Shown piece by piece: positions 8,076 through 59,313 of a stretch of DNA of 64,000 nucleotides. Position 1 is the stretch's first letter; the number at the start of each line of letters is the position of its first letter. Position numbers and translations under genes: made by a program. The notes below the pieces were generated by a model. That model was not told the origin of the DNA. It made no database searches and saw nothing but the letters and a program-made list of their open reading frames with translations. The DNA lies in NCBI GenBank assembly GCA_010093815.1, contig ML996590.1. The stretch is one strand, 5' to 3'. This stretch comes from Pseudovirgaria hyperparasitica. Its lineage: Eukaryota.

Positions 8076-8106
8076 TTATTAGTTAAGGGCTACCCTTAAC
8101 TAATAA
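8076..8106. repeat. 31-bp palindrome (LINE copy 1, immediately before the ORF1 start)
   Basis: Same sequence as 3287-3317. Confidence 0.95.
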
Positions 8107-13250: not shown

Positions 13251-13389
13251 TACTAATTAGCACCGATTTTCGATGTCCATTTCTCTTAGTAAATCATTTT
13301 TCTAAGTCTCTTTTTTAGTTAAATTTTTTAAAGTTCTAAGTTTGAACTTTCTAAGGAAGTTCCTTAATTCCTTAGAATGTTTTAAAGAT

Positions 13390-23703: not shown

Positions 23704-23734
23704 TTATTAGTTAAGGGCTACCCTTAACTAATAA
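23704..23734. repeat. 31-bp palindrome upstream of LINE ORF1
   Basis: Read directly; followed by CCATAGCG (RIP of CCATGGCG start context). Confidence 0.95.
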
Positions 23735-28480: not shown

Positions 28481-28511
28481 TTATTAGTTAAGGGCAGCCC
28501 TTAACTAATAA
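28481..28511. repeat. 31-bp palindrome at LINE ORF2 end
   Basis: Read directly; loop CAG. Confidence 0.95.
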
Positions 28512-31500: not shown

Positions 31501-32799
31501 AGACTAGGATAGATCGTTTTAGTTAGTATAGGTCTATATAAATATAGATTAGTCGTTACTAGAACTAAAGCGTATAATATAGCTTTAAGTCTCGTAGTAT
31601 ATCCTTAAGCTTCGTCGAGTTCGCGTAGTTATTACTCGAGTTAAATATATTATTACCTCTCTTTATATAGTCTAGTATATACGTTATTATACGGTATAGT
31701 TAATATTAGGCGATTCTAATAGATTAACTCGTTAACGTTAATAAGGTCTAGCCTTATATTAAGGTTAGGTCTAGTATAGTTTAAACTAGACTAAGATAGA
31801 GTATAATAGACTCTATCCTCGTGTTCTATAATATCTTCTATAGTTATATAGAATATCATGCGAGTTATTAGTGCGATAGTCTATAAGGTATAGTTATTAG
31901 TAGGGGTAGTTATAGATAGACTATTCTTCTTATTTAGGTTAGGAGAAGGTCTACTATAAGAGGCGGTACCACGAGTATTATAACGAGTGGTTAGAGCCAT
32001 TTCTATAAACTACCGTCGTGCTATATAAAGAGGAATTAAAATATAAGGATTATAGACGTAGAATAGTAGTCTAATAGATTATAGGAGGATTCGGGAATAT
32101 ATTTAAAAGGGTAGTCTACTCTTCTAACGAGGTTAATTTCTAAAGAGTAGGAATTAAGTGTGTACGGCCTACTTATATAGTGGTCTCGCTTATTCTAGCT
32201 AGCTTAACCTAGGTCCACCTATTACGGACCGTACTAGACCATAGTAGTCTAGTTAAGTCTATCCTAGTGTTAGCCCTAACATTAGCTAAGAAAAGATAAT
32301 AGTATATATAAATAGTTATAGATCTCTATAGCTATACTAATACTATAAATAGATTAAATAGATATAAAAGAAATAAGAGTAATAAGAATAGTTCTAAATT
32401 ATATATTTAAATACTCTAATAGCTAATTTAACGCTCTTCTTGAGATTTATAATAGACTTTAGATAGTTACTATAAATCTAAAGGTAATTAAAGCTATTCT
32501 TACGTAAGAACCTAAGAGATATAGAGCTATATTATAATAATACTATTAATACTTCTACTAACACCTAGGAACTAACTTAGTATAGTATCTATATAATTAT
32601 CTAATGGAAGCTAGCTTACTAAAGTAAGTACTATAACGAAACTTATTACTTTAAATTACCCCTAGTAGCTATTATAGAAAGTAATAAGAAGATAGATAAC
32701 GGTAAGAACTACGGACTAAAGGTCCTATATATATAGCCGTAGATTCTATAAAGTAGCTAGTAATAATTAATCTTATACTTAACTAAGATATAATAACTC

Positions 32800-36097: not shown

Positions 36098-39000
36098 GAA
36101 TCTATACTTAACCTTACCCTAACTACGGAATATATAAGCTATAGAGTATAATACTACCGCCGTAGTAAGACGTAGATAGACTCTAACTACGAGTATATAG
36201 AGACCGCGATAGATATATCTATATTTAATAAATAATAGAGGAGATAGCTCTAGAAAGATACTAACTAGAAGAAATATAGAGAAGACCTAGAATTAGTAAT
36301 TCTAGATCTCTCTATAGTTAACGTATCTAATATCCCGGCTATAGATAGAGCTATATAAGTCCTTCTTTAAGTCTTCTAAGACTTAAGAGATAAATATATA
36401 CTATATTAAATATATAAGCCCCTAGATATAAAGAGTATATCTTAAATATATAAAAGTAGATAGGAAGCCTAGAGACTATATATTCGTATATACTATATCT
36501 AGATAGCTAAGGCATAGAAGAAATAGAAAGAGATAATCTAATCTTATAATAGAACCCTCTATAATAAATAATATAAATACTAGTATATAATTACTAATAA
36601 ATATACACGCTAGGCTATAGAGCTATAGTATATAGTAAAGTAGGCTAAGAGCGTGGACGTGCCGACGCTACTACTACTAATACCTTCTCTAATATACTAG
36701 AGGAGAATATATACTATAAGTTCTAAAAAGATAGAGATTCTCTAAAAGATTATATTTCCCCCCCTAGAGCTAGTAGACCTATTAGATATTAATAATACTA
36801 TATATCTAGATATAGTTAATATCTCTATAGAGATTATAGAAGAGAATATACTTAATACTATTAAAGTACTTCCGAATAATAAAGTGCCTAGACTAGATAG
36901 AATACTAAATAGATATCTTAAATATACTATATAGGTAACTCTACTACTTATTAGTCTTATCTTCTAGATATATACTAAGAATAGATACTATCTCTAAAGC
37001 TTCTAGACTACTTATACTATTATACTTCTAAAGCTAGAGAAGAATTCTAACTCTCTAAAAGGATAGAGACTAATTACCCTTCTCTTCTATCTTAGTAAGA
37101 TATTTAAGACTATAATTATAAAGAAGATAAGTACTATAGTATAAGAATATAATCTTCTTCTAGTAAACTAGAAGATAAAGATAGAGAGCTCTCTAATTAC
37201 TACTATCTAATATATTCTTAAAGTTATTTAGACTATATAGAAGTAGAGATATATAGTAATATTACTCTCTCTTAATATAGCTAGTATATTTAATAAGGTA
37301 AACTATATAAGACTTATCTATAATCTATAGAAGAGATATATACCCGAATAGATTATAAAGTTTATATAGTTCTTCCTTACTAAAAGAATTACCTAGATAT
37401 ATATCTCTAGATATTAAAGTAAATATAAGAAGATAATATATAGTATTCTATAAGAAAGTACTATCTCTCTAATTCCCTTTCTCTTCTTTACTATAGACCT
37501 TCTATAGAGAATATAATATATAGAGATAGTAGAATATACTAATAATATATACCTTCTAGCTATTAATAATAATACTAGTTTAATATATAAATACCGTAAA
37601 TAAGACTATAAGAGGTATATCTAGTAGATAAAGCGCTATAGAGTAAAGTTAGCCCCTAAGAAATACTAACTTATATACTTTATTAACTACTATAGAAGAT
37701 AGACTACTAGAGAAGAAGAGTAATATTCTATAATAGATACTTTCTCTAAACTACTAACATAGAGTATATATATACTTAGTATTATAATTAATAATAAACT
37801 TAAATAGGGTCTATAGATTACTTATACTATATCTAGGGCTCTTAAGATAGAAGCTACTATATACTAGATTACGGCCTCTATATAGGGAACCGCCTAGAAT
37901 AAGATATACTAGCTATATATCTCTATAGTAAGACCCGCCTTTATATATAGATATAAGTACTAGTATATAGCCTTTATATAAGCTAGGTAAATAAAGCTTA
38001 AGTCTATATAGAACTATATACTCTATCTTATATTAGAAGTATATAAAGCTACTAATATAGTACTACTATAACACGAGATAAATATAATAAGTATATAGAA
38101 CTTCTACTAGATATAGAGAGTAATATACTTTACTAAATAATAAGTATAGAAACACGTAGAATATATAGAATATACCTTTACCACGCTATATATATAAGTT
38201 AGTATCTACTATTAAGTACTACTATATATAGACTAGACTTAAATATAATATAAGTATCTAATAGAGATAGACTTAAACTAAATTATATAAGAGATTAGAG
38301 ATAATCTAGATACCTCTCTAGACTAGTAGAACCCTTAGAAGCTTATACGGGCTATATAGTTATAGACCTAGAATAAATAGAAGAAAGTCCTCTAAATCTA
38401 TTAGATATTCTAATAGAATAGATATCTAGAATAGATTTAAGGACTATAGAAGAAACTAAGTAAATAGATATATAAAGGGCTTATAAAAGTCTAAGTATCT
38501 ATTCTTCTCTAAGCCTAAATAGAAGCTATAGAACTTCTATACTATCTATATTAGAGGGGTATCCTAGATATATCTTTATAGTATAAAGTATATAGCTAGA
38601 GAGATATAATATAGTACTATCTCTCGATATATCTAGACCTCTATATATAGAGATAGTTACTTATCTATATAATAAGAATCTCTAATATTATATATTAGCT
38701 TAATAAGTACCCTAAGAAGATCGCCTAGTAAATACTTATATATCTCTCTCTCTCTTAGTACTAATAGACCTAGATATATATACTAGAAGAGACTAGATAT
38801 ATACTAGATAGACCCTAGTATACGCCGGAAGAACCCTAGAAGAACTCTAATTATTAGTTAAGGGTAACCCTTAACTAATAACCCCTATACTATATATATA
38901 CTATCTAAGAATAAAATAATAGTACTATAGATTATAGGTCTATAGATATTTCTAATAACTATATACTTAAGATAATATAAAGATTTAATAAGATATAGTT

Positions 39001-39125
39001 ATAGAGAGAAGGAAGCTTTTCCTTTTATAAAGGTTTCTTCTTATATAATAGCTTAGACTAGAGAAGATATATACCTATAGAGTAAACTACTCTATCTAGT
39101 TATATAATATTATTATTATTATTAT
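36098..39125 (+). mobile_element. 5'-truncated Tad1-like LINE, copy 3
   Basis: Homologous to ~25730-28750; TSD TATAGAGTTATA (36086-36097/39126-39137); palindrome at 38851-38881; (ATT)n tail. Confidence 0.92.
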
Positions 39126-39137
39126 TATAGAGTTATA

Positions 39138-42100
39138 AAGCTCTAAAGAGACTATCTTTAATCTACTATAATACTAGAAGCTCTTAAATAAGAGATTCTT
39201 ACTATAAGAAATAAAGTCTTCTAGAATTAATTAAGTTCTACTATAAATAAACTACTAAAGTCTCTACTTAAAAAAATAATTATAACTCTATAAACTAACT
39301 AAAAACTATTAGAACCTAGAGACTAGAAACTACCCTTCTAGAATAGTAAAGTAGCTACCTTTAAAGACTATCTATTATAGTTATATAGCTTCTATAAGAT
39401 ATAATCTATACTTAAGCTAAAGCTATCTCTAGAATACTACTAGAATACTATCTATAATACTCTACTAGTATATAAGAGAAACTAAATATAATACTTCTAG
39501 AAAGGGGGGAACTCTATAAAAGATAAGGACTCTAAAGTCTTCTTTATATAACTTAAGTATATATTTATAGATAGTAATAAGAAGGCTTAGACCTTAGAAA
39601 AGCTTTTATTACTTAAATATATAGATAGCTAATCTTAGTATAAATACTAACTTAAATTTAATAGACTTCTACTAAGTACTAGTAGAGATAACTAGAAAGA
39701 TAGTATAAAAATTAGCTATCTCTAAAATACCTTCTTAAACTCTACTTATATATATATAGTCTCTATACTAAGAATTATAGACTACTATAGCTTTATAGAA
39801 GAGATTAAGAGAATTATAATAAACTTAGAAGATACTAAGTAGTTTAAGATAGCTAATAAGAAATAGAAAAAGAATATAGTTACTATAATAAGAAGTATAG
39901 TAGCTCTAAGATTATATAAGTATTATACTATACCTAAAAAGAATAAGAATAGATATACTATTATAGACTCTATATATATAAGTAGAGACTAGAAGAAAGA
40001 ATCTAGATTCTACTATAAGATAGAGAAGATACTAAAGATAAAGTAGATTAACTAAGTAGAAAGAGATAGATATAGAAAAGAAGGGCTCTACTTCTATTAT
40101 AGAGTATTAGAATACTAGATTAAAGACTATCTATATACTATTCTCTTCTTAATCTCTAAAAGAATTATAAAGATTAATTAAGTTAAAATTATACCTCTAT
40201 TAAAGATTAAAGATAATCTTATAGATTCTAGTAATAAGTACTTAGAAAATATATAACTCTCTCTTAAAGTTAAGAATAGAAAGTAGAGAATATACTAGTA
40301 GATAGATAGACTAAGTTCTAAAGTATAATAGATAGAAACCTTATATATATAGATATAGTCCTCTAAAAAAGCTATTAGAACTTTTATACTTATTAATAAA
40401 GGCTACTAGTACTATACTATAATTTAAGAAGACTTAATAGAAGGTCTAGAACTTCCCTATATAAATTATAGAAAGTATATAATTAAGGGAGTAATAGATA
40501 CTATATATAACTCTAAAATTTAGAGAGTTATTATATTTTATATAGAGATATATAATTATAAATAAGATATCTATATCTATATAGTATCTAACTTAGTCTT
40601 TCTACTTATTCTTAGAAACTCTTAGAAAGTATATAATAAGATAAGAACTATATCTAATAAATAATAGTACTACTATAGCTAAGTAAAGTAATAGATAGAT
40701 AAAGATCTTAACTACTATAAGCTAGAGACCGCTAAAGAATAGATAAATCTAGTAAAAGAATATAAGAACTCTAAAGGGACCCTTATAGTAAATATAGTAT
40801 CTATAGAGAATATCTATAAGATACTAGAGAAGAAGAAAGAGCTATTACTAGAATAGATATAGAAAATACTATCTCTATAGCTTTAGAATATAGCTCTACT
40901 ATTTTCTAAGAGAGAAGTAGATAAACTTATATTATACTAACTAGATATTAACTATAAAATTAAGATATATAAGAAAGTAGATAGAATACTAATAGACTTA
41001 CTATAGAGATAGCTATTTAGTATAGTAAAAGATAAGCTTCTTGTACTAGTTAAACTTCTAAGAGATCTTCTAGTAAAAGGGCTTATTTAGTATACTATAT
41101 TAGAAGCTATAGTCTCTATATTATTTATAAGAAAGTCTAGTAGAGAACTCTAGTTCTATTATAACTACTATATCTTAAATACTATTACTAAGTCTAACTA
41201 GTATCCCTTACTACTAATACTAGAGACTCTCTAAAATCTAATAGATACTAAGTAGTTAACTAAGATAGATATAGTTACCGCCTTCTACTAGACTAGTATA
41301 GCCCCTAGCTATAAATATAAGATAGTATTTAAAATATAGTTAGGGTTACTTAAATAGATAGTATATCTATTTAGATTATTAGGGGCTCTAGTAATCTTCT
41401 AATAGTATATTAACTCCTTACTATAAGAATAGCTAGATAACTTTACTTTAGTCTATATAGATAATATAATTATTTACTTAAATAGATTAAAGAAAGACTA
41501 CTTTAGTAAGATATATATTATTCTCTAGAAGCTCTAGAATAGAGATCTCTATCTAGATTCTAGGAAAAGTAAGTTTACTTATAAGAAGATTAAATATCTT
41601 AGATTTATTATATATACTAATAGAAAAGATATAGACTCTAATCTAAAGAAGCTAGAAGTAGTAAAAGACTAGTAGAAGCTAAATACCTAGAAGAAAGTAT
41701 AATAGTTTCTTAGGTTCTATAACTACTACTAGATATTTATTATAAACTATTCTAAACTAGCTAGACCTCTTATAGCGCTTACTAATAAGAATACTCTATT
41801 CTTCTAGAGAAAGAATAAGAATAAGTTATTCTAGACTCTAAAGAAAAAGTTCTTAGAGACTCTAGTTATAGTATACTAGAACCCTTATTAGAAGATATTA
41901 CTTAAAATAGACTATAGTAGATTTATACTTAGAGAGATACTACTTTAGAAAAATAAAGGAACTCTTAGATCTATTAGATTTTTCTTATAGAAGCTAAATA
42001 AAGTAGAGATTAACTATAATATCTATAATAAGAAGATACTTACTATAATCTTCTACTTAAAGTTCTAGAACCCTAAGTTAAAAGTATATAGTCCCTTTAC

Positions 42101-44087
42101 TATATAGATAGACTATAAGAATCTTAAATACTTTATAATAAAATAATACCTATTAGAATACTAAATATATTAATAAAATCTTATCTAAATACTAGTTCTC
42201 TCTAGTTTATTAACTAGAATCTAAAGTAATTATCTCTAATACTCTATTAAGATAGAAATAAGATAATATACTTAGAGTAGATAATAAAGAGTCTAGGTTC
42301 TATAGGTTTCTAGACCCTAAAGATATAAAAGATTAGCTAGTCTCTAAGGTAAGACTAGTAGTAGTCTATACTACTAACTTACTATTTAAGAATATATTAC
42401 TAGAGACTAAGCCTATCTATAGAGAGCTAGCTTCTCTAGAACTCTTCTAGAAGTACTCTCTAAATAATCTATAGACTATAATAGTAGAGAAGAACTTAAT
42501 ATACTAAACTATACTCTATATAGTAAAGAAAGAAGTATAGTTAGTTCTAAGTAAAGTAAAGCTAAAAGTCTAAGTAGTAGATTATAATATTAATTTAGAA
42601 GACTATCTTAATTACTATAGAAAGCTATAGATACTAGATATAAAGATAACTATAGAAGCCGAGTATAAAGTACTAGAACCTAGTAATTTAGAAGAGAATA
42701 TTCTTTAGACTAAGCTTATCTAGTCTATATATAACTTACTACTCTATAGCTATCTAGACTAAGACTCTATTAATTCTATACTAGTATAAAGCTTTTACTA
42801 GCTACTATAGATAAGATATATAAGGTAGTTTCTATATAACTATAACTCCTATAGATAGAATAAGATATAGTAGAAATAAAAATATAGACTTCTAAAGTCT
42901 CTTCTAGTATCTAATTACTTCTTCTAGAAGATCTTAATAGACTTTATTACTAATCTATCTAGCTTAGAAGAGAACTATTACTTATAGATTATTAAAGACT
43001 ATATAAATAAGACTATAGTATTATAAGTAATATCTACTATAAAGGTAGAGAAATATACTATAGCGTTTATAGATTACTAGATAAGATACTATAGTATATC
43101 TATAGTAATAATAAGTAATTAAGAAATAAAATAGACTAGCTATTTCTAGAAGACCTTTTATAGTCTTACTAGAGTAATCTAGAGACTAAGCTTTATATAC
43201 TATCTATAAATAGATAGAGACCTAGAAAAAATAAACTAAGAGAGATAGAGCTACTTATAAAACTTAATTAATTAGAAATAGTCTAATTAGAAAACCTAGC
43301 TTCTAATAGTATAACTAGTACTAAACGTATATTACTAAGTAGAGCTAGAAATAAGTCTATTCTTTACTATCTATAGATATAATCTATTATTCTCTATAGC
43401 TCTATAGATAGAAGCTAACTCTAATTTCTTACTCTCTACTAAGTAAAGAGTAGTAATCTTTATAAAGAAGATAAAGAATATTACTAAGCTATATAAAGTA
43501 AATATAGTAGAGGCTATCTAGAAGTAAGAGGAGTCTATAAATAGAAAGTAAACTCTAGTACTAGTATATTATATAGAAGATAAAGTATAGCTTAACTTAA
43601 GAAACTATATAATAAGTTAACTAAAGAAGAATCTAGACTTAAAGTATATAAAATAAACTATAGATAAAGTTCTATTACTAGTATCTATTAGACTAAGAGG
43701 GCTTTCTAATAATATCTATCTAGTATTCTATATATATCTACTTAGACTAGCTAGTAAAGACCCTTTATCTAGATAGAAGACTAATAATAAATAACTAGAC
43801 TCTATACTTATTAAGATATATAAAGACTAGTAAGTTAAGAAAATACTATATACTAGAAATAAAGAGCGAGGATAGAAAAGAGAAGTCCTAGTAAAATAAA
43901 TAGAATACTATAATCTAATATAGAAACCCTTAGTAAATCTAATAGATACTACTATATTAGATAAGTTAAAATAGAAGTTTAGATCTACTAAGATAAATAA
44001 TAGTCTACTAGAGTAGTAGACTATAAAGAAAAAGAAGATATCTATTTAGTAATATATAGAATATATAGATAAAGAAGAGAAAGACTA
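39138..44087 (+). mobile_element. Ty3/Gypsy chromovirus family C internal region (gag-PR-RT-RH-INT-chromodomain), heavily RIPed
   Basis: De-RIP motifs FCVDY, CPFGL, YxDD, ETDCSGF, ISMDFIT, HPQTDG, WQVEKIL...VLVKW...TWEP; purine tract at ~44070-44084. Confidence 0.85.
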
Positions 44088-44611
44088 TATAGTATAGTAA
44101 GCTATTCTTAGGCGTATGCCTTTAAAGGAATAGATTTACTTCTTAATAAGATAGATATAATAAAATTACGTCTATCTTCTCTATATACTATAAGTACTCT
44201 TTAACCTTATAACTACTTATTAGTTCTCTTATATAATAGAACGGGTCTATATAATACTTATAATTAATTCCTTAATAACTATATCTATTAATTAATACCT
44301 ATAGAAGCCTAAAAATATAAAGAAAAGCTAAATAGTTAAATATAAGTAATAGAAGTATATATCTATCCTAAATAAGTAGAGAAATATCCTTCTTAAGTAT
44401 ATAAATATACTATATAATTAAGCTAGAGATATATATATATAGGGCTATAGATACGGCCTTTTATATATATCTCTCTAGTCTATAGAGCTACTACTCTTAA
44501 TAGTATAATAGCTATTATAGAAACTATATAGAAAATATATAAGGAAACTATCTATAAAATAAAGGAAAAGACTAATAATAAGTAGTTATTATAGATAAAT
44601 ATTAGTCTAGA

Positions 44612-44642
44612 TTATTAGTTAAGGGTAGCCCTTAACTAATAA
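44612..44642. repeat. 31-bp palindrome abutting the stop codon of the dioxygenase-like pseudogene
   Basis: Same arms as the LINE palindromes, but the flanks are not LINE ORF sequence. Confidence 0.95.
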
Positions 44643-45710
44643 TTAGATAGATTTAGATATCTATTCTTAGTTCTTAAGATCCTAAGCTAGCTCTTTAAGA
44701 ATTATATTACTTAATTTAGATAGAATAGAATTATTATTATTAGAGATTCTATTAGACCACTCTTATCTATAGAAGTTCTCTATATTATTAGATAGTATAG
44801 TATTAGATAGGTATTTCTTAAAGTTAATAGACTACTTCTCGCCTCTAGCCTTATTAAACTCCTTCTAGAATAATCTATCCTTATAGACCTCTCTCTCTAG
44901 TTCTACTATCTTTATAAAAGTTTCTATAAATACCTTAGTAGTATCTTTAAACCACGCGTTAGTCTTTTACTTTAACTTCTAAGATCTAGTATTAAGCTAT
45001 ATAGCGGCCTCCCTATATACTTTCTAGCTATTCTATCTTTTCTAGCTAATTAGAGCTTTACTTACTATATTAGAATTTAAGAGCTAGATAGTAGCTAGAA
45101 AGACATATAGAATAGCACTATACTTATTTAAGAAACTAGATAGAGATATAGACCCTAGCATTAGATTTCTATATACTACTATAAGCTACTTCTAAATATC
45201 TATTTCTAGTATCTCTATTATTATATAGTTAGAGCTAATAGAGATATACTATAGAAATATTATATATCTTACCCTCTTTACTAGCTCTAGAGCACTATAT
45301 ATTATAAGAGGGCTAGATATATAGATCTTAAGGGCCTTATAGGGTATAGATATAAATAGACTAAACCTCTACTTATCCTCTATATTATAGATCTTATTAT
45401 TAATAGTAATAACTATACTATATCTATTAACTTCTAGACAGAGCTTTATCTAGATCTACTATTCTTCTAGAAACTTATATAATTATAGAATAATAATAGT
45501 AAAGTTATCTTTTACTTATTATTAAAACTAATACTTTCTTAGATTATATTAGTACTATAATAGTTATTAGAGTTAAGTACTCTATTAATTAAGTTATCTA
45601 GATACTAGAATATAGTTCTATCTTCTAGTCTCTAGAACTTTATATAATATAGATATAAAATTAGATAATAGTTATAGTTAGATCTATAGACTATATAAGA
45701 AAGCTAGTAT
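44643..45710 (-). pseudogene. 2OG-Fe(II)/PhyH-like dioxygenase-family gene, 3' part (RIP-degraded, frameshifted)
   Basis: De-RIP reading RLISYPYYAKF..PGD.T.FRHLD...GANMIQGSVSFDDE...HGA...RRTMFPWYV: an HxD motif, a distal His and a basic residue, as in double-stranded beta-helix oxygenases. Confidence 0.6.
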
Positions 45711-45715
45711 ATAGA

Positions 45716-48700
45716 TATAAGGATTATAGACGTAGGATAGTAGTCTAATAGGTCATAGGAGGATTCGGGAATATATTTAAAAGGGTAGTCTACTCTTCTA
45801 ACGAGGTTAATTTCTAAAGAGTAGGAATTAAGTATGTACGGCCTACTTATATAGTGGTCTCGCTTATTCTAGCTAGCTTAACCTAGGTCCACCTATCACG
45901 GACCGTACTAGACCATAGTAGTCTAGTTAAGTCTATCCTAGTATTAGCCCTAATAATATCCTTCTTCTTTTTATACTTTACTCTAAAGTACTTAGCTATA
46001 TATAAATCCGTAATTCTATAAGCGTTATATTTATACGCGTATCTAATTGAATCTATATAACGTTATCGATAGTCTTTATATTAGTAAACTTAAGCTCTAG
46101 TTTACTTTTATTTATACACGCGCTTATCCCTTACTTTATAGCTACTACCTTAGAGATAGCTCCGCGGGTTATATAACTACTATATTAACTAAGCTTATAT
46201 TTAGTTCTCTTATTCTAAATTTTCTTCTCTAGTATATCTACCTTACTCTTAAGATAAGTCGTTAATTTATATACTATCTCCTTTAGTTTAGATCCGTTCG
46301 GGTCTAGAGTAGTCTATTTTTATTAGAGCTAGTCCTATATAATCTATTCGCGTTATTACGGTTACTAATTTAGCTTCTTTAATCGCCTTTAAGACTAAAC
46401 GAGTATTCTACTCTTAGATCTCTAGCTAACGTGTATATATAGATATCTAATACTAGTCCTATTCCTAAGCCTACCTTCTTCTCTTATAAGACTCGCTCTA
46501 AAGAGATTACCTCTACCCCGGCTATACTAGCTAAAAAATCCACTTATTATAGTAGTATAAAGGCGCGCTCTAAGTTAGAGAAGAAGGTAGCTAAGGCTAC
46601 TACTACTATTACTACTAACGTAGCCACTAGTCGCTCTAATCTAGGTAATTCTAGTACTAGTATTACGGAAGAGATAGCTATAAAGCCTATCTATACCTAC
46701 TCGCGCCGTCTATCTACTCTACCTCCTTTAGAGGATAAAGAAGATCTTATTATAGACGATAATTAAGAGTTTACACCTTCGCCGTCTCGCTCTAAACGCC
46801 GTTCCTCTTTTCGGTCTAATATAGACTAACTTAGTTACTCTAGGTCCTTTTAGGACCTTAATATTTACTCTAAACCTAGCCCTAGTAATAATAAGGTCTA
46901 GATCGCCGAAGATACTAAATATAGTTACGGTTTACGCTATAGGAAAACGGCGAACTATAGTTTAATATACTTTAAGTATATTAAGACTTACGCTACTAGC
47001 TCTAAATATCTCTTCCGCTCTAACTCTAGTATTAGCTACTACTCTACTAACCGCGATAGATCTATACGCCTAATCTTTAAGCTCCCTATCTACTACTACT
47101 ACTATACCGTCCTTAGTAAAGTTTATCTTTAGATAAGTCTATTAGACTATTTTAGTCTAGGGTAATCTAAAGTTATCTATACTAATACGTTTTTAGGTTT
47201 CTATTTATATATAAGATATATATAACGATCTTCGCGTCCGCGAGACTCTCGGTAGTTCTAGCGGTTATCTAGCTTCTATATATAGGGAGTTTAGGGAGCG
47301 CTATAAGCTCTTTCTAGAGGTTATTAAAGTATAAGTTTAAAAACTATTAATTATTATTAACCTTAGCTTATAATTTTTAGTCGCTGCGAGATTCCTAGCG
47401 CTTAGGCTACCTATTCTAGGGAGTTAGTTTTAGCTACTAAGGCCGTAGAAGAGATTTATACTATTTCTTCCCGCCCGCCTCGTGCTACTAACGGGTCTTA
47501 TAAGAGATCTACTAGTTCTCCTTCTAAGTTACCTTATAAGAGGGTATATATTCTATTCTAGATTATTCTAGATCGTGTTAGCTAACTTTAGGTCTAGTCC
47601 CTCCGCTCTAGCGCTTAGTCGTTATCTTACTAGGCTCTAACTAAGCGCGTGGTTACTCTAGAGGATAAGGTCTCTAACCTCCGTCGCTCTATTACTTAGT
47701 TATTTTATTTACTATACTCTAAGAGTAATAATAAGATAGAGGAGTAGCTCTATGGCTCTATTTACTAGGGTTTCTATATAGTGTATATTAGCTCTATCTA
47801 CCTGGTTTCTATCCGTTTTAGTCCTTTTTAGACCGTTTAGATACCTATCTACTAGTTTTCTAGTAATTTAATTCTTAACTTAATAATATTATATACGTTC
47901 TTATTTATTCTATAACTATTAAATTTTAGATTCTAATTTCCTTTAAGTTACTTAAGTATAGGTATTATATATAAATTAGTTTATCTCTCTAAATTATATT
48001 AGAGTACCCGAACTAGTAGCCTAGTAGTTATTAGTTTAGATACTCTAACCTTTTATATTATATATCACGAGTTTAATTCCGTAGTAGGGTACCTTTTTAG
48101 TTTCTTAGTCCTATATTCTTCTTATGTATAATAGTCTATGTTAGTCTATTCTAGACTTCTCTATATTATTCTATTATAATATATTACGTAGCGTACCTAT
48201 AACGGTTATTTACGTTTCCTTCGCGTTTAGTAACCGTGCATCGCTTAAATTATAGGGCTACCTTATAGAGTTTTCCTAGTATACGTTTAGAATTTATAAT
48301 TCGACACTTTATTCTCTATAGTATCCTTCTTCTTTTTATAATGGCTCTAATAGCGCTAGGTTTACGGTAGTAACGTATTATCCTATAACCTCTATTTATA
48401 TATAGCTATCGCGGTACTTAAGATATATACCGTAGGTTCCTAGGTGTCCTTATCCTCGGTATAGTTCTTCTAATAGATTCGATACTTTTAGATACCGTTC
48501 TTATCGAGCCTATATTTAATAATATAGTCTACTTCGTACACGTCTAGTCTATCTTAGGGTATAATAGAGTATAATTACACGTTCATGCGTTTATATACGT
48601 TAGGTCGAAACCTTTTAAGTAATAAGACGTGGAATACGTTATAGACTTTTATATCATTTTCTAGGTTAAGCTCGTAGGCTCTTATACTAATATAACGTTT

Positions 48701-51700
48701 GATTCGGAAGGGACTAGCCATTTTATAATTAAGCTTTTTATTTACTCGTGATATTTATATATTATAGATATTAAGGAGGACTTCGTCTCTCTCCTCGTAC
48801 GCTTAATCTTTAACTAATCTATTATAGTACTTTATATACGACTTATTTACTTACTAGATTATTACGCGATAGTTACGTGCGGTTTTAAAGATTTTAATCG
48901 CTAGTTCCTACGCGTGGACGTTAACATCTATCGTTCGGTTGAACTAGACTATATAAGGTTCGAAATCTATCCTTAGACTACGTTCTAGGTTCGCCTAGAA
49001 GGGCGTAACACCTATTATACTATAATGACTATTATTATACGCGAATTCTACTATACTTAGTAGAGAGGCCTAGTTATCTTATTTAAAATTATAGAATATA
49101 CGAAGGTAGGCCTCGAGCGTTTAGTTCTATCGCTCTTTCTAACTATCTATTTATAGATAGAATACTATTAATATATTTCTATTTATACCGGCCATTTCAT
49201 AGAATAACGTCTAGAATTTAGACGTGAATATACTCTCTCGGTCTATAACGATTCTTTTTAGTATACTATAGACCTTAATAATCTTATTCTAGAATACTTA
49301 TACTAGTTCTTTTAATATAATCGTCTTCTATATAGGGACGTACCTAGATATCTTTATAAGTCTATCTACGATAATAAGAATTAAATTATAACTTATTCTA
49401 AGCATCTCGCTTAGAGGTAAGTTAACTATAAAATCTATAGTAATATCTTCCTATATAAAGAGGGGGACTAGTAGAGGCTATAAGTTCCTATATAGCTTAT
49501 ACCTAGGTGTCTTTATTCTTTAATAAATCGGATAAGTAGCTATCTATTCTTTAATGTACTTAGGTATATCTTTCTAAAAATAGTACTAATAAATCGAGCT
49601 TAGGGTGCGTATATACCCGAAATATTCTACTAGGTTAGTGTTATAGTATCGGCTAACTACGGTAAATCGTGTGTTACCCGTCGGTATATAGTACTTTCTA
49701 TTATAGTAGAGTAAGCCGTCCACGAAGGTCTACTTATAGTCTACTTCGGTCTATAATAATCTATCTTACTATATTTTACGTAACTTTAAAACTATCGGGT
49801 CTATCTTTTATAGATCCACGATTAACTAGGTAAGGTCTACTTAATATACACGCTAGGTACTATCGCCCTCTCTAATAGCGCCGATAAATAGCTCGCTAGA
49901 GACTTTAGTACCGTGTCTTTAGTTACTAGCTTTAGTCTTATAAATTTAATTACTAGTATTAGCGTTAGTATCTCGCTAATTATTAGATAACTTATTATCT
50001 AACCTCGTCCTTAAGAGTTAGGCCTATAGCTACTCTAGGACCCTATAGCTACTATAATTCTAGGCGCCTTCTTTATAGTTAGGTCTTCTTAATATTCTAT
50101 TAGCTAGGTTTATACTTCTAGGTCGATAGTAGATTATAAAGTAGAAATTTATAAGCTACTTAGCCTATTAAACCTATTAATGATTTAAAACCGTTATACT
50201 TATAAACCTCTTTAAGTTATAGTAATTAGTTAGTAACTTAACGTTATATATAGTACCTTTAAGATAATATCGCTACTACTTAAACGACTCTACTATTACT
50301 AGTAGCTCTTAGTTATAAATAGTATATCTAGTCTCGACGTCGGCTATCTTACGCGAGAAGAACGTAACTAGATACTATTAGACCTTTTTAGACTCTATTA
50401 GTCTAGGCTAGAAGAGTATACCCGAGATTATAAATCCTAATATATTAGTTTCAACGTGAATAGGTTTAGTTAGATCGAAGTACACTAGTAATAGAGCGGT
50501 TATAAATACTTCTTTAATCTTCTTAAAGGATATTCTTTTAACCTTAGTTAATTTAATAGGTTATAATTTAATATTATACTATTTCTATCTACTATAGACC
50601 GTAATAGATAAGTCGGTAGTAGTAGTATACGTATTAAGTAGTGCGGCTAAACGGGAGAAGTATTTAATAAATTTTTAGTAGTAGTTAGTAAAGCTAATAA
50701 AGACACGTATATCTCGAACGGATTTTAGTTTAGGCTAGTCCATAATAGTAGTAACTCTATCTCTCTCTATAGTTATACCTTAATTAGTAATAACGAAGCT
50801 AAGAAAGTTAATATAGTCCTAATGGAACTCGCATTTAGATAGCTTAATATATAGCTTATACTTTTCTAGCCTATCTAGGACTACACGTACGTGCTAGATA
50901 TACTCCTCCTCATTATCTAAGAAGATAAGGATATTATCTAGGTACACGATATATGTCGTGTTAAGTAGGCCTACTAGCGCGTTATTAATATATACTTAGA
51001 AGGTGCCTAGCGCGTTAGTTAGTCTAAAAGGGACTACGGTATACTTAAAGTATCTATAACGGGTCCTAAAAGCCGTTTTCTATTCATTACCTTCCTTAAT
51101 ATAAAGGTAATAGTAGGCGTTACGTAGATCGAGCTTAGTAAAGATCTTTATACGTCCTAGTCTATTAATAGACTCGGAGATAAGAGGTAGTAGATAACGA
51201 TTCTTTCGTATAATATTATTTAGGCTATAGTAGTTAATATATAGACGGAGGCTTCTATCCTTCTTCTTTATAAAGAGAATTAGAGCTCCGGCTAGAGATA
51301 TACTAGGCCTAATCTATTCTCGTGTAAGGTTCTTTTCGATGTATTCTCGAAGGGCTTATAACTTAGGTTCTAAAAGAGGGTAGATAGGTCTATATAGAGG
51401 TTACTAGCTATCTTTAAGATTAATAGTAAGGTCGGTAGATTAGTATTAAGGTAGTTTAGAGGAATTAATCGCTAACATAATATATTAGTATATTTTATAC
51501 TAATATAGTAGGTTTTCGTCTACTTTAATACTAAGCTTACTATTTTACGTAAGTAAGAGTATATAGATAGTAGAGATCGCCTTCTTATAATCTTTCTAGA
51601 ATTATTTATTATTAATAAGCTATACTAGTTCCTATTAAGGTAGATTTATACGCTAGCTAGCTATCTTCTTAAGAAAGTCTAGTTTTAGATTATATTTCTT

Positions 51701-53726
51701 AAGCTATAGTATACCTAGAATTATGTTAAAGGGACTATCTACCACGATAAAGGTTAAGTAGTAGAGTTTCTATTTCCCTCCGCTATCCTAGATATCGTAT
51801 TTAATAGTATAGGTACTATATAACTTAATAGGACCGTCGATACCATGGAATATAGTACCTATTAGAGCTTAGATGTCGGTATTAAGTTCTCGTGCTCGTT
51901 AGATCGATATAACGTTAGTAGCCGACCTACTATTAAGTATTATAGTCTAATATTATCCACGAGGGACCTCGATAGGTCTAGCCTATAGTTCGATATACTA
52001 TTTAGTAGATTACCCCTCTATTATGGTCGCGTCTATAAGTCGCGAGGGTTTCTTATAGGCTATTAGTTTTTTATATTCTATACTAGGTAGTTAGGCGTGA
52101 TGTATCCTAGCTACTAGCACTTATAGTATATAACTAGTTAGTTAGTTATATTAGTACTTAGTAGCTTCCCTAAATAGTACTTAGGTACTATATAGTCTAT
52201 TCTACTATAGATATAGTAAGTAACTTTAGGTTATTTATATAAGTCGGTTCTTATATCTCGATATATCGATTAGTAGGGAGATCCACGATATAATCCGCGT
52301 GGTTTTAAATTTAAGGCATAGTAGTGGCCTTATAACGTCCCGCGAGATCTATTACTAAATTAGTTTTAGTTAGATGATTTTACGTTAGATTAGATTATTA
52401 GAGATAGTCGTGTACTAGCGCGGCGTTAATTATTTATTATATACTAGTATCGCTCCGCGAGGTTTATAAGAGCTTAGAGGTCTATAGAGATTATTATTAT
52501 AAGATCGAGATGGTTCTTTATATTTAGGGCGAGGGACCGTTTAAAGTCGTCGTACTATTAAATTATATAATCTTCTTTAGCTTCTCTCTAGAGGGGCCGA
52601 AGGTATTTAAGGAGTTATAATAGTAACTAATTATCTCGTTATCGAGTCTCGAAGATATAGCCCTAGGTCTAGTCGCGTTATTTAGCCCTATTACTAAAAT
52701 ATTAGAGGAGAAATTTAGTAAACGTATTCTAGTTATAGGTATCCTTAGAATATTTAATTCGGTATACTATCTAACGTTCTAAAGGCGTTGGGTTAAGGTA
52801 GTTCTAGACGAATCTAATTTTATTACTATTATTCGTGAATAGATAGAAGAATCGGCTATATTAGTAAGTCTATACGTGGAAACTCTTTCTACTTTTACTA
52901 TCGAAGTAAGGTGGTTTCTTAGGTCGGGGTAATTAGGATAGTAGTAGACTAGAATAGATCGTTTTAGTTAGTATAGGTCTATATAAATATAGATTAGTCG
53001 TTACTAGAACTAAAGCGTATAATATAGCTTTAAGTCTCGTAGTACGTCCTTAAGCTTCGTTAAGTTCGCGTAGTTATTACTTAAGTTAAATCTATTATTA
53101 CCTCTCTTCGTGTAGTCTAGTATATATATTATTATAAGATATAGTTAACGTTAGGCGATTCTAATAGATTAACTTATTAACGTTAATAAGGTCTAGCCTT
53201 ATATTAAGGTTAGGTCTAGTATAGTTTAAACTAGACCAAGATAGAGTATAATAGACTCTATCCTTATATTCTATAATATCTTCTATAGTTATATAGAATA
53301 TCGTACGAGTTATCGGTGTAATAGTCTATAAGATATAGTTATTAGTGGGGGTAGTTATAGATAGACTATTCTCCTCGTTTAGGTTAGGAGAAGGTCTACT
53401 ATAAGAGGCGGTGCCACGAGTGTTATAACGAGTGGTTAGAGCTATTTCTATAAACTACCGTCGTGCTATATAAAGAGGAATTAAAATATAAGGATTATAG
53501 ATATAGAATAGTAGTCTAATAGGTTATAGGAGGATTCGGGAATATATTTAAAAGGGTAGTCTACTCTTCTAATAAGGTTAATTCCTAAAGAGTAGGAATT
53601 AAGTATATGCGGCCTACTTATATAGTGGTCTCGCTTATTCTAGCTGGCTTAACCTAGGTCCACCTATCACGGACCGTACTAGACCATAGTGGTCTAGTTA
53701 AGTCCATCCTAGGGTCAGCCCTAACA
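45716..53726 (-). mobile_element. Ty3/Gypsy family B, copy 2, uninterrupted (8011 bp)
   Basis: 240-bp LTRs 45716-45955 and 53487-53726; TSD ATAGA (45711-45715/53727-53731); colinear with copy 1 minus the LINE. Confidence 0.95.
46443..47747 (+). pseudogene. Antisense four-exon accessory gene in Gypsy B copy 2
   Basis: Colinear with 19693-20997 (offset 26750), with the same splice signals. Confidence 0.72.
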
Positions 53727-53731
53727 ATAGA

Positions 53732-54640
53732 ATATTAATAGACTAGCTACTAGATATAAGAGTAGTAGATAGTATATAGCTATCTATAGTTTAACTTATT
53801 ATTATATCTCTACTAGTAGTATTTATATATCTTAAACTCTAGTCTACTAAGTTTAAGAATACTTTTATTAAGAATAGTTATTTTAGACTTAAGAGGTTTA
53901 AATATTCCTATAATATTAATACTTCTAGTCTTATTCTATTCTATAAGAAGCTAATCTTCTAATCTCTTATTATACTTCTAGATAAGAGATAGAATACTAT
54001 TAAGTATCTTCTATATATCTATAACTAGTTTAGATATATTAGAGATATAAAAGTAATAGATCTCTAATACCTCCGTAGAGTATGGTAGCTAGATATACTT
54101 AGTAAAGTATATATAATACTTATTATCTACTTTAAGGGCTCTAATATTATCTCTAAAGTTAAATATCTTCTTAAGTCTTACTACTAGGTTTATATAGAAT
54201 ATACTAACTAATATCTTATTTTTTCTAGCTATATTCTAGTAATACTTAAAGTAGACTCTATAGGGGGTAGCTCTATTAATTATCTATTTCTTTTATTTAA
54301 CTAGTAGAGCTATACCTTTAGCTATTATAAAGTTCTTCTTTAAGGATACCGCGGCTTTAAATATCTTTATTATAGAGGGTATATACTTATAATACTTAGA
54401 GTCTTCTTCCTCTTTCTTCTACTACTACTACTAGATTTATTTTAGACTATAAGACTTTAGTAACTAATAGATATTATAAGTATATTTTTAGTAGGTATTA
54501 AGGGTCTACTAATAAGATATATCTATAGATAGACTTTACTAAGAGAGATATAATAGATACTAATAAAGTCTAAGTATAAGTAGGCGGCGAATATATCTCT
54601 ATAGTAGATAGATAATATATTTCTAATCTAGAAGGTTTAC
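53732..54640 (-). pseudogene. Dioxygenase-like gene, 5' part (start not defined)
   Basis: De-RIP reading EFKMYKYH...NYGWLRTIYYSHIQQLV joins the 3' part across the ATAGA TSD. Confidence 0.55.
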
Positions 54641-54732
54641 CTTATAGAGGTAATTTTACTATAGATATTACTTATATTTACTTTAGTAATAGTAGTTCTA
54701 GAGATAGAGATAATATACTTATCTTCTTAATC

Positions 54733-54742
54733 NNNNNNNNNN
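54733..54742. other. Assembly gap (10 N)
   Basis: N run. Confidence 1.
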
Positions 54743-55116
54743 GAGAGAGAACTAAATACATAGAGAGACCGTTCCTTATATATTCCTCCTTATATATTCT
54801 AGATCCTTCTCTCTATTAATAATAGGAATCTTCTAGACCTCTAGACGTACGTATACGTTCTATAGCTCTAGTAGTTCCCTTAGAATAGAATAGGGTAGAG
54901 TAGAACTCTATAGAACTTATAGACTCTATAGTAGAATCTTATAGAACTCTATAGAAGTTCGTGTTTCTAAAGATCTCTAGAAGTTTCTAGAAGGTTCTAG
55001 AAACTTCTATAAGAGTATAGAGTATTTATATATATAAGTAGATAATATTAGTAAGGTCGATTACTAATATTAAGCTATTCCTAATAAGGAAATACCTTAT
55101 ATAAACTTATTAGACA
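54743..55116. repeat. LTR-like segment with internal ~10-bp TAGAAnnTTC tandem units, ending in ...AGACA
   Basis: Terminal CA and short tandem repeats; no second copy in the window. Confidence 0.35.
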
Positions 55117-56199
55117 TAGTAGAGATAGAGTTTATAATTTTACTATAGATATTACTTATACTTACGTTAGTAATAGTAGCTCCGGAGATAGAGATAATAT
55201 ACTTATCTTCTTAATCTATAAAAACTACTCTATAGATCTATAGACTATTCTACTAACCTAAGACTACTAGCTAATAGAAATAATAAGTTCTATTCTATTA
55301 TAGAAAAGTAATTTATTTTATTAACTAGGGTAGTTTTAGAGTTATAGAAGGGAGGGTCCTCTTATATTATAATCTCTAGCTATAGTAGTATTAATATTAG
55401 AACTCTAGAGATATACTTTAATTTCTTATTCTCTCTATTCTTAACTAATTTAAGACTATAGAGGTATATTTAACTAGTCTCTTACTTATATCTATAGCTA
55501 TATTTATAAAAGTACTACTAGCTTTTCTATAAAGTTCTATATCTACTATAGTAGCCTAAGAGTAGATTAGAATAACTAGCCTTCTATATTAGAGAGATCT
55601 TTTTACTAGTTCTATAGAATTATATTTTTAGTCTTTAGAATATATAAGTTAGTATATCTTTCTTAATAAATTATCTTATAGACTTCTTTTAGAATAGTAG
55701 ATTTAATCTTTACTTTACTATATTCTATTATAGCTTCTATCTTCTAGAATATATTAACTATACTACTTAAAAGTTATTCTATAAGACTAGTAATATAATA
55801 AAGATTATTAAATATATCTATAATATAATTCTACCGTTTCTATAGATTCTAAATAGTAAGAATATAGTTAATAGTAGAGGCGTTTACTTCTATAATATCT
55901 ACTAGTAGATCTTAAGAGATAGTAGATAGTCTTAAGACTATAAGGGTAGTTAAAGGCCCTACTTTAGTACTTATAACCCTTTACTATAATTATATCTATC
56001 TTATTTAAACTTATTAATCTTATAATTCTTTATAAATAGATATCTTCTTTTTTAGTAGAGCTATTACTATTATTAGTTTCTATAAGAAGATATAGAGATA
56101 TAAAAGGAAGTTAGTATAAGAAGAGTATTAGAGAGGTTAAGAAGGTATAAAGAGAAGAGAGTTCTATACTTCTTATATATCTTGTCTTATACTTTATTA

Positions 56200-56960
56200 A
56201 ATACTAGGTATATAATAAATTTTATAAATAGACTTTATTAATAGCTATATATCTATATATATATTAAATCTATAAATAAATATATACTAGATATATAGAA
56301 AATCTATAAATAAATATATACTAGGCGCTTAGCAAAATCTATAAATAGATAGACGCTAGGTATATCTCTATCTCTTAGTTATAAGGTTTTCTATAAATAT
56401 CTTTCTTTTATAAACTTTCTCTCTCTTTTCTTCTTTTCTTTATTAGCTTTAATAGAGTCTTATATAAGTATAGTATAAAGTAAGCGTTTATAGAAAGACT
56501 TTAAATTTATATATATCTCTCTTTATATCTTTCTTACTTTAATAGTAAGGTTTATTATTTATTATAATAATAGAGTTTATCTTTACTATAATAGTAGAGT
56601 TTATCTCTTTAGATAAATAGATATAGAGTATATAGAGAATCTATGAATAAATATATACTAGGTATATCTTTATTCTTATAAGACTTTCTATAAGTATCTT
56701 CTTCTTCTAGACTTTCTCTCTCTATTCTTTTTCTTATTAGTTTTCTATAGAATTATAGAGGTCTCTAATAGATAGACTTTAATTATATAACCGGCTTATA
56801 TATAGTAGATAGACTATAAATATACTCTTACTTATATTTTTCTTTACGTCTTTCTTAGTTTAATACTTATATTTTTCTTTATATCTTTCTTAGTTTAATA
56901 ATAAGGCTCGCTATTTCTTAGTAATAATAGAGTTTATCGCCCCTTTTTAATAATAGAGCT
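56200..56960. repeat. Degenerate tandem and dispersed repeats (AAATCTATAAATAAATATATACTAG units; longer duplicated blocks) downstream of the family F integrase
   Basis: Repeated units visible at ~56266, 56300, 56335 and 56638. Confidence 0.55.
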
Positions 56961-57099
56961 TATTATTATAAGACTACTTCTTAAAAGTATCTTTCTCTTC
57001 CCTTTTAAAAAATTTAAAAAAAAACTTCTATTCTATAGAAGAAGATATTAGTCTTAGAGAAGTATATATACTCTTCTCTATTAAAGTTTTATAGAGTAG

Positions 57100-58752
57100 A
57101 AATTACTACTTCTACTTATACTTATATACTATTATTATAGTATTCCATAGGCTATCTATAGTATTCTTTCTTATTACTACTCTTATTATTTTTATAGATA
57201 ATTCTTTTAATAGATAGCTAGAAGAACTTAGTTTACTACTAACTATTTATATTACGTATAAAGTACTTCTTTAGTCTATAGCTTAGAAATATTCCTTTAA
57301 GTCTAGTTCTATCTAGTTCTATAAGCTAGTAGATATAGTTAAATACTAACTAGATTCTATATAGCCCTCTCTAATACTACCTTAGTTTCTATTCTATATT
57401 CTTCTATTATTATAAATTATATAGAAGAATAATAGTATTAATCTATAATAGTTCTTAATAGAGATAATAATTATTATTCTATATCTGTCTTAATTCTTTA
57501 TAAGTCTATATAGTATAGATATATACTTCTTAGAGATCCTTAGATCTTCTCTTTAGTTATCTAGCTTAAAGAGTAAGTAAGTCTAATATTAATTATATCT
57601 TATTCTAAGGGAGTATTTAGAATAATTTAAATTCGACCTCTATAGATATAATTAGTTTGTAGCTAAGTATAAGATATATAGTACTATATCTAATACTAGT
57701 ACGAGTTATAATTCTATCTATCTATATAACTATATAGAGGTATTTAGACTAGTTCTTATATCTACTATTAGTTATCTTTATAAGGGTATTAGTAAGTAGT
57801 ATAGAACTTCTTTTAATAATTCTATTTATATAGAGATTATATATAGATATAACCTTCTAATAAATTCTATAGAGTTTAAGAAGTTCCTCTATAGTATCTA
57901 TATTCTCTTTTCTACTATTATAAGTAATCTTAGAAATAATTCTATATCTATAAATAATATTTTTAAAGAGAAACTTTATAATAATAGTAGACGTAGCTAC
58001 TATATCTACCTCTATCTTAGTCTATCTACTTAGCTACTCCCTTATAGATACTACCTTACTATATTCTATAGAAGGTAGTAGCGTTATTATATCTAGGTAT
58101 ATTCTTTACTAGAGAATAGATATTACTATATAGTAGAGCCTTTTATTAAGACTACTAAGAAGTTTACTCTACTACTAATATTTATTATAAGTCTTTATAT
58201 ATTATTATATATCTTTATATATCTCTATCTATTAATACTTATCTTTAATTCTTCTAAGAGTCCCTTTACTATCTCTATAATCTATCTTATTATAAGTAGT
58301 AGTAATTATATATATCCTAGTATTCGGGTTATTAACTACTTATATATATTAGTAATATCTATCTTCTCTCTACTAGAGTATTTAGTCTTATATAAGAAAT
58401 TTAAGATAGTTAGTTATAAAGGCCTTATATATATAATTAGTTAGATTAGTTAGTCTCTTAAGTATAGTAAGATACTTTATAATTCTTTACTACTTATTAC
58501 TATATTTATTAGTTAGAGATAACTTAATAGTAGTATAGTTAAGTATCTCTATTAAGTAATCCTTCTATAGATAGACTTAATTAATAATATTCCTAGTATA
58601 TCTATATATAGAGCTATATCTATAGACTTATCTAGATTAAAAGTAGAGATATCTAGTAGTTCTTCTCTCTTATATATCTACAAGATACTATTAGTAACTA
58701 TATTATACTTTCTAGATATACATCTAATTATAAAATTCTATAGTTAAATCTA
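57100..58752 (-). mobile_element. Ty3/Gypsy family F RNaseH/integrase fragment
   Basis: De-RIP reading ITCDGGKEN...ISAYNPRANGIVERG...LTDALAK...WSKHLHAVxWADR. Confidence 0.7.
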
Positions 58753-58762
58753 NNNNNNNNNN
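58753..58762. other. Assembly gap (10 N)
   Basis: N run. Confidence 1.
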
Positions 58763-59313
58763 ATATAACTAGGTAGAGTAGTTTACTCTATAGATATATA
58801 CCTTCTCTAGTCTAAGCTATTATATAAGAAGAAACCTTTATAAAAGGAAAAACTCTCTTCTTTCTATAACTATATCTTATTAAATCTCTACGTTATCTTA
58901 AGTATATAGCTATTAGAAATATCTATAGATCTATAGTCTATAGTATAGTTATTTTACCCTTAGATAGTATATATAGAGTACGTGGGTTATTAGTTAAGGG
59001 CTATTCTTAACTAATAATTAGGGTTCTTCTAGGGTTCTTCTAGTGTATACTAGGGCTTATCTAGTATATATCTAGCTTCTTCTAGTATATATATCTAGAT
59101 CTACTAGTACTAAGAGAGTAGAAGATATATTAGTATCTACTAGATAATCTCCTTAGGGTACTTATTAAGCTAGTATATAATATTAGAGGTCTTTATTATA
59201 TAGATAAGTATTTATCTTTATATATAGAGGTTTATATATATTATAAGATAGTACTATATTATATCTCTTTAGCTATATACTTTATATTATAGAGACGCGT
59301 TATAGATATCTCT
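58763..59313 (-). mobile_element. Short 3' fragment of the LINE, copy 4
   Basis: Homologous to ~3065-3615; degenerate palindrome at 58987-59017. Confidence 0.85.

Follow-up and report, generated by a model that had tools for sequence, protein, structure and literature searches.

The window analysed here, 64,000 nucleotides (nt) of contig ML996590.1 from Pseudovirgaria hyperparasitica (assembly GCA_010093815.1), is an AT-rich transposon nest with heavy repeat-induced point mutation (RIP), its G+C content ranging from 0.18 to 0.40 overall and from 0.24 to 0.28 across the feature under study. This feature, termed unit R, occupies 44094–45715 and 53732–~54433 on the minus strand. It is a dead, RIP-ruined member of a small unclassified multicopy family, destroyed by RIP and by the insertion of an 8-kb Gypsy element. 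The family is probably a protein-coding, spliced unit of the RNA polymerase II type. Its most likely history, which we favor tentatively as plausible but unproven, is spread through RNA with the help of a resident long interspersed nuclear element (LINE).

Copy-number statements rest on the window and on contigs from two public sequencing runs (X1 and X2) of one sample, which is probably the sample used for the window assembly. Contig evidence was read among the 16 of 1082 contig pieces that were listed; unit R was interpreted only where contig cover exists, and summed contig depths were not taken as copy numbers.

An intron-like difference between copies of unit R

The strongest evidence for a spliced unit is an intron-like difference between copies. 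One contig each in X1 and X2 joins 44941 to 45021, skipping 44942–45020, with CGT between; the most economical reading of this joint is the loss of 44945–45020 together with two transitions. The 76 nt that would be missing have the form of a spliceosomal-type intron on the minus strand (GTATAT...ACTAAC...AG), with the branch point 15 nt from the intron end in a textbook fungal pattern. Among random 50–100-nt segments of the old layer, GT..AG borders occur at a frequency of 0.0041, falling to 0.00042 when a GTRNRT 5' site is also required and to 6e-6 with CTAAC in addition. A precise loss of 76 nt with splice signals therefore argues for minus-strand transcription and splicing of unit R, and RNA was probably the intermediate from which one or more of its copies arose.

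The preliminary description had proposed a multicopy element, and the contigs agree. Distinct contigs of 141–217 nt at about single-copy depth (180–285) overlie 44752–45659 with 3–9% differences (Table 1); most differences are transitions (156 of 190 in run X1). Judged by these sequences, unit R has at least three further diverged variants. Bins of high depth at 44183–44273 have no corresponding repeat within the window.

We suggest that at least part of the family spread via spliced RNA and that RIP struck the duplicated copies after amplification. The resident LINE would be the likeliest helper in reverse transcription, since its proteins could have bound the LINE-type hairpins present on the transcript.

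LINE-type hairpins and the 3' boundary

Self-comparison disclosed four copies of one LINE in the window, LINE A to LINE D (Table 1), which we take to be Tad1-like. The best hits of the LINE B reverse-transcriptase region carry PF00078, PF14529/PF03372 and PF00075 (best E 1.1e-22). A palindrome core recurs at seven places in the window, with none expected: directly behind LINE open reading frame 2 (ORF2) at 3290, 28484, 38854 and 58990, at 8079 and 23707 in the full-length LINEs, 245 nt from their 5' ends, and as a solo copy at 44615, outside any LINE, where 44615–44639 matches exactly. In the LINE 3' position the palindrome is perfect over 35 nt (29–35 nt across LINE positions) and folds as RNA into a hairpin of −16 to −20 kcal/mol. 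The solo copy, also of the 3' untranslated region (UTR) type (G-ATTATTAG...CTAATAAT-C), folds at −20.3 kcal/mol (z −7.2). Because each full-length LINE has copies in both its 5' and 3' UTR, the palindrome belongs to both untranslated regions and is not by itself a 3' signal. When metagenomes were scanned for it, no match was returned.

Similarity between the solo palindrome and the LINE stops at these 35 nt: the flanks of the solo copy align to no LINE copy, and RIP-aware alignments of them against the LINE 5' and 3' regions gave background scores only. A 22-nt extension towards a flank of the LINE 5' type was rejected, as it vanished when gaps were disallowed. The stop codon said to abut the palindrome is present as TAA at 44643–44645 in one minus frame; it is not a meaningful stop, because it aligns with the CGA/TAA flank of the LINE 3' palindromes (TAA in the more RIPed LINE C and LINE D). 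In the LINE, the frame running from ORF2 into the palindrome stops at a TAG within the left arm. Both LINE copies share stops about 35 codons before that TAG, which may be products of RIP.

The second shared module is a short GC-rich hairpin, AGGC-N4-GCCT, which occurs four times in the 64 kb against 0.47 expected; none of 100 shuffles reached four. The other three occurrences belong to the tail of LINE A, that of LINE B and that of a SINE-like element (SINE, short interspersed nuclear element). The 13-bp match to the LINE 3' UTR described earlier holds: TAGGCGTATGCCT at 44109–44121 corresponds to TAGGCGCATGCCT at 3094–3106, and the unit R 13-mer differs from that of LINE A by a single G-to-A change on the minus strand. 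Hairpin and palindrome lie 494 nt apart in unit R versus 184 nt in the LINE, and the sequence between them does not align to the LINE spacer. Compared with the LINE 3' UTR, the 3' stretch of unit R scored at background (103; its tiles ranked 35th and 49th of 424). Between its hairpin and palindrome lies an imperfect inverted repeat (44423–44478) with 17-nt arms, CTAGAGATATATATATA and TATATATATCTCTCTAG, 22 nt apart.

The 3' ends of LINE A, B and C consist of the AGGC-N4-GCCT hairpin, a CCTAGTT-type box and an (ATT)5–6 tail. A terminal part of about 90 nt with the same hairpin, CCTAGTT box and (ATT)5 is shared by the SINE-like element, which lacks the palindrome and serves as the window's own positive control for LINE mobilization. 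Its head carries a box-B-like word, GGTTCGAAT; ARAGORN and Rfam call no tRNA there, so that a tRNA-like head is unconfirmed, and tRNA and Rfam scans gave no hits. A second, partial and inverted copy of this element lies at 1–392. On unit R, the terminal box and (ATT)n, the very part of the LINE 3' module that the SINE-like element shares, were not found. Tail and target-site duplication characterize the SINE-like element and all four LINE copies, as far as the LINE ends can be read. The palindrome and hairpin of unit R do stand in LINE order, but calling them LINE 3' signals goes too far, as the palindrome is also found in the LINE 5' UTR.

The unit had been taken to end near 44088. Contigs place a repeat boundary at 44093, where four fit the right side only and two the left side only; 44093 is the junction of two repeats rather than a shared 3' end, and the true 3' end of unit R lies outside the window. 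The missing rest of a LINE tail was sought to the left of the neighboring Gypsy fragment, and none was seen; a search for the far end of unit R with loose-end consensus words used words that were too unspecific. The only nearby (ATT)4 run, at 44730–44741, is on the other strand and inside an ORF-like piece; it was rejected as a plus-strand LINE tail, its flank scoring 39 against a background of 45 ± 6.

Reading frames and protein identity

The nested Gypsy reported within unit R was confirmed: its pair of long terminal repeats (LTRs) is flanked on either side by the ATAGA target-site duplication (Table 1). A sister Gypsy at 18966–32281, which bears its own 5-bp duplication (TTAGC), is 99.8% identical to it in purine/pyrimidine letters. 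Excision of the nested element joins two minus-strand stretches, and the best frame continues across the joint. To this extent the excision restores a gene-like minus-strand frame; the restored frame nonetheless contains 45 stops in 608 codons and changes near 45400.

Three ORF-like pieces were scored: 54433–53732, 45715–~45300 in the same frame, and 45400–44646 in another frame. Their 45 in-frame stops comprise 36 TAG and 9 TAA. TAA is infrequent in the chosen frames (2 of 233, 4 of 122 and 3 of 253 codons) compared with up to 33 in others; in 53732–54433, which has 18 stops, the other minus frames hold 9 and 33 TAA. Within the middle part (45021–45715), frame f0 is best for 45715–45561, and f2 is free of TAA for 45400–45021. 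In three of four pieces the first codon position is the richest in purines, a pattern that the known LINE and Gypsy frames also show; the purine fractions by codon position are 0.60/0.55/0.50 in 53732–54433, and the first position reaches 0.66 in 44646–44944. None of the three pieces contains a His, Gln or Cys codon, a pattern expected from complete RIP of CA-containing codons. Purine period-3 power was dropped as a coding test, as it failed to discriminate between known coding and non-coding parts. Of 17 variant letters from other copies, none was informative, and none turned an in-frame stop into a sense codon. Overall, the coding-like signs of unit R are weak.

The preliminary description had further assigned to the gene product an HxD...H iron-binding triad and hence a 2-oxoglutarate (2OG)-Fe(II) oxygenase identity. 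The triad did not hold up: HxD is absent from all six frames of unit R, His codons number 0 of 608 in the ORF-like pieces, and the de-RIP proxy Y-x-[D/N], expected about 5.8 times by chance (arithmetic from residue counts), is found 6 times. Any triad would thus be a de-RIP conjecture. Nor did sequence searches yield positive evidence for an oxygenase. Pfam gave no hit in 12 frame-pieces, phmmer none when the 233 upstream residues were compared with 1.84 billion representatives, and word-based searches, with 4503 and 1643 candidates, none at E ≤ 10; PDB searches returned zero and three noise hits (E 0.6–1.6). These negatives carry little meaning, because Pfam finds nothing in equally RIPed sequence, with no hits in 6 of 6 frames of LINE C and the gag-to-reverse-transcriptase part of the neighboring Gypsy, where a reverse transcriptase is certainly present.

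RIP-aware scoring, which credits each codon with the highest BLOSUM62 value attainable among its RIP-compatible ancestral codons and uses shuffled codons as nulls, recovered the LINE C reverse transcriptase. Against seven intact Tad1-like ORF2 proteins, LINE C scored z = 32 as a whole and z = 17–19 for the part 1100–2094 nt upstream of its palindrome. Unit R as a Tad1-like LINE ORF2 was rejected at z = 1.6, measured at the same distance from the palindrome as the LINE C part, and as a coding region of the window's LINE or Gypsy elements at z of at most 3.5 (Gypsy control z = 10–14). As its scores stay low where the controls score high, unit R does not encode a LINE or Gypsy protein. A methodological lesson follows: at about 25% G+C after RIP, Pfam is blind to real reverse transcriptases, whereas RIP-aware scoring recovers them at z = 17–32.

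Unit R meets the neighboring Gypsy fragment tail-to-tail. Within that fragment, the only part visible to Pfam is RNase H (RT_RNaseH at 41901–42140, E 1.8e-8); tblastx gave reverse-transcriptase and integrase-like hits at 41091–43650, with the reverse transcriptase at 41091–41612. No LTR pair of this fragment is detectable within the window. A minus-strand segment at 33416–34085 probably represents one more degenerate Gypsy remnant; in purine/pyrimidine letters it shares about 80% identity with the reverse-transcriptase regions of the two Gypsy families. On the other side of unit R, the stretch 54434–54742 ends in one of two 10-N assembly gaps (54733–54742 and 58753–58762). The first gap is bracketed by an 83-nt repeat (54650–54732 and 55134–55216; 94% identity, 98.8% in purine/pyrimidine letters), and with this repeat on both sides the join upstream of unit R may be unreliable. 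Farther on, 56170–57000 comprises about three tandem units of ~300–350 nt each (56174–56325/56510–56662, 56307–56438/56610–56735 and 56512–56605/56868–56964).

Table 1. Coordinates of unit R, of contigs overlying it and of other elements in the window.
Feature	Position	Strand	Remarks
Putative 3' untranslated stretch of unit R	44094–44604	−	Cut at 44093, start of another repeat
AGGC-N4-GCCT hairpin motif, LINE-tail type	44110–44121	−	4-bp stem when folded
Solo palindrome, 35 nt, 3'-UTR type	44605–44641	n/a	Matches LINE palindrome
Last ORF-like segment (frame of the preliminary description)	44646–44944	−	6 stops in 99 codons, TAA 2; worst frame 23
Spliceosomal-type intron	44945–45020	−	76 nt; missing in another genomic copy
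ORF-like middle part	45021–45715	−	Frame changes near 45400
ORF-like upstream part	53732–54433	−	Same frame as 45715–45561 after excision; starts behind (TAG)5; 233 codons, TAA 2
Stop-dense upstream stretch	54434–54742	−	Ends in 10-N gap; hides 5' limit of unit R
Contig	44752–44932		6 differences
Contig	44903–45043		6 differences
Contig	45226–45408		6 differences
Contig	45246–45396		14 differences
Contig	45263–45479		9 differences
Contig	45512–45659		12 differences, beside an exact copy
ATAGA target-site duplication, left copy	45711–45715		Adjoins nested Gypsy
Nested Gypsy	45716–53726	− (pol on minus)	8 kb; LTRs 45716–45958 and 53484–53726 (243 nt each)
ATAGA target-site duplication, right copy	53727–53731		Adjoins nested Gypsy
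Neighboring Gypsy fragment	39142–44093	+	Heavy RIP; outside unit R
LINE A	3048–8350	−	Full-length
LINE B	23463–28749	+	Full-length; nested in sister Gypsy; 13-bp duplication
LINE C	36100–39125	+	5'-truncated; 11–13-bp duplication; nested beside or in another Gypsy
LINE D	58763–59295	−	Tail hidden by gap 58753–58762
SINE-like element	12307–13252	+	946 nt; exact 11-bp duplication CTAATTAGCAC; within 12296–13263

Competing explanations and known systems

Several observations weigh against a spliced unit spread through RNA with LINE help. The window copy itself retains the 76-nt intron, and no second copy of unit R was detected in the window by self-BLAST, tblastx or purine/pyrimidine-collapsed BLAST; the copy evidence consists of short contigs from two runs of one sample, among 16 listed of 1082 pieces. 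Without the 76 nt the reading frame is displaced, although f2 is the most open frame on either side. The real stop may precede the intron, or the intron may otherwise fall outside the coding part; alternatively, the frames may have been misjudged, or the shift may be offset by a second intron, for which 45249–45200 offers a 50-nt candidate. By stop density, a plus-strand frame is about as open as the minus-strand one, so that the strands are not distinguishable. At the 3' side, the tail region of unit R was absent from the top 30 of 2556 tiles in a search for the LINE terminal box; no (ATT)n tail follows the hairpin in this copy, which is cut at 44093, and the four right-side contigs continue beyond 44093 with about 37 unlike letters and no (ATT)n run. 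No target-site duplication was seen for unit R, whose 3' side is cut at 44093 and whose 5' side enters the assembly gap; none was seen at 55911 either.

A different account dispenses with the gene altogether. Unit R would be non-coding repeat DNA contributed by the neighboring Gypsy fragment or by another degenerate element, for instance as its untranslated part or a long 3' LTR, and the ORF-likeness and intron-like indel of unit R would be accidental. Polypurine runs at 44025–44038 and 44071–44084, two of 11 such runs in the 64 kb, stand just before 44093, the latter 9 nt to its left; TATAGT at 44093 and ACTATA at 44278–44283 resemble RIPed TG...CA ends, being words that are common in RIPed DNA. 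The failure of stop density to separate the strands, a period-3 signal no stronger than in some non-coding parts and the absence of any protein relative among the searches are in keeping with this account. Against it, queries with 44086–44290 found no matching 5' LTR or second LTR within the window, the two contigs fitting to the left of 44093 diverge beyond it, marking its sides as different repeats, and a contig at 44262–44410 crosses the putative LTR end at 44283. The indel, moreover, carries full splice signals at the chance frequency given above, and TAA is depleted specifically in single frames. We consider non-coding DNA unlikely.

About equally unlikely is a family amplified at the DNA level, be it a host gene that was duplicated or the gene of a class II transposon, in which a stray cDNA event stripped one copy of its intron and which took its hairpins from an old LINE fragment nearby. 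The retained intron, the missing LINE tail and the palindrome–hairpin spacer, unrelated to that of the LINE, would all suit such an origin. A terminal inverted repeat was sought between 44080–44100 and 54300–58760 and gave no candidate at ≥27 of 30 purine/pyrimidine matches, though the true ends may lie outside the window; Pfam detected no transposase domain, its power here being low. Two LINE modules in LINE order beside an ORF end would also be an unlikely accident. The same order of ORF, palindrome and hairpin could instead identify unit R as the 3' half of a LINE from an older lineage that has since diverged, comprising the end of ORF2, the palindrome and the hairpin of the 3' UTR, and in one minus frame the palindrome register N-Y-stop-L-R-A-T-L-N-stop-stop corresponds to the LINE's D-Y-stop-L-R-V-A-L-N-stop-stop. 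This is improbable in view of the z of 1.6 against Tad1-like ORF2 proteins, where LINE C reaches 17–19 at matching distance, the z of 2.6 against LINE B codons, and the intron. To our knowledge, LINEs lack spliceosomal introns.

Spread through RNA with LINE help thus remains our tentative preference. In its narrower form, a LINE-dependent coding retroelement with the oxygenase left aside, it is possible but doubtful. The proposal put forward at the outset was more specific, namely a LINE-mobilized non-autonomous retroelement with a 2OG-Fe(II) (AlkB- or TET/JBP-like) oxygenase as cargo. Part of it finds support: the unit is multicopy, carries the two LINE modules, palindrome and hairpin, and one copy lacks the intron. 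The oxygenase part has no positive evidence behind it. The uninformative searches, in which Pfam missed the reverse transcriptase in 6 of 6 control frames, leave some room for such a protein; against it stand the lack of His codons and HxD, the chance-level proxy motif, the empty Pfam, phmmer and word searches with only noise from PDB, and a 3' side on which neither LINE tail nor duplication was seen. We regard the full proposal as very improbable. The same very low probability attaches to its most elaborate form, an intron-bearing LINE parasite that borrows palindromic and tail hairpins and whose cargo, a nucleic-acid-modifying 2OG oxygenase, would counter silencing of the cytosine-methylation or RIP type. 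As it stands, unit R is a dead relic within a RIP-degraded transposon nest, and the oxygenase idea is unsupported.

Known systems resemble unit R in part. Fungal carriers of TET/JBP dioxygenases are, in the excerpted text of a recent survey, all DNA transposons or Helitrons, from rusts, mushrooms and Pezizomycetes (Kojima 2025, PMC12730594). Unit R resembles them solely in the notion that a fungal mobile element might carry a 2OG dioxygenase; no dioxygenase feature is demonstrable in it. If the oxygenase-cargo proposal were nevertheless true, unit R would be the first retroelement-borne dioxygenase, none being found in the 2025 survey as far as that excerpt extends (PMC12730594). Processed retrocopies (retrogenes) are made by LINE machinery, as outlined in excerpts of PMC3747384. 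The unit R paralogue that lacks the intron exactly fits this class; the window copy, by contrast, keeps its intron and shows no tail or duplication, and unit R bears LINE-type hairpins, which ordinary retrogenes need not have. With the Tad1-like LINEs of filamentous ascomycetes unit R shares the palindrome and the tail-type hairpin, while differing in the presence of an intron and in giving no reverse-transcriptase signal where LINE C reaches z = 17–19.

The closest parallel may be drawn with the non-autonomous partners, SINEs among them, of 'stringent' LINEs, which are well known to share the LINE 3' stem-loop and tail (excerpts of PMC4176376 and PMC3747384); fungal SINEs with 4–14-bp duplications have also been described (excerpt of PMC5063351). 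Like such partners, unit R shares short structured RNA modules with a resident LINE, is multicopy and comes with evidence of RNA copying. Unlike them, it shares the internal 35-nt palindrome and a 12-nt hairpin instead of the terminal box and (ATT)n, and it is at least 2.6 kb long, ORF-like and intron-bearing. If it did spread through RNA with LINE help, unit R would represent a rare fungal case of a long, ORF-bearing and intron-containing LINE dependant, and the 35-nt palindrome of both LINE UTRs would become a candidate recognition module.

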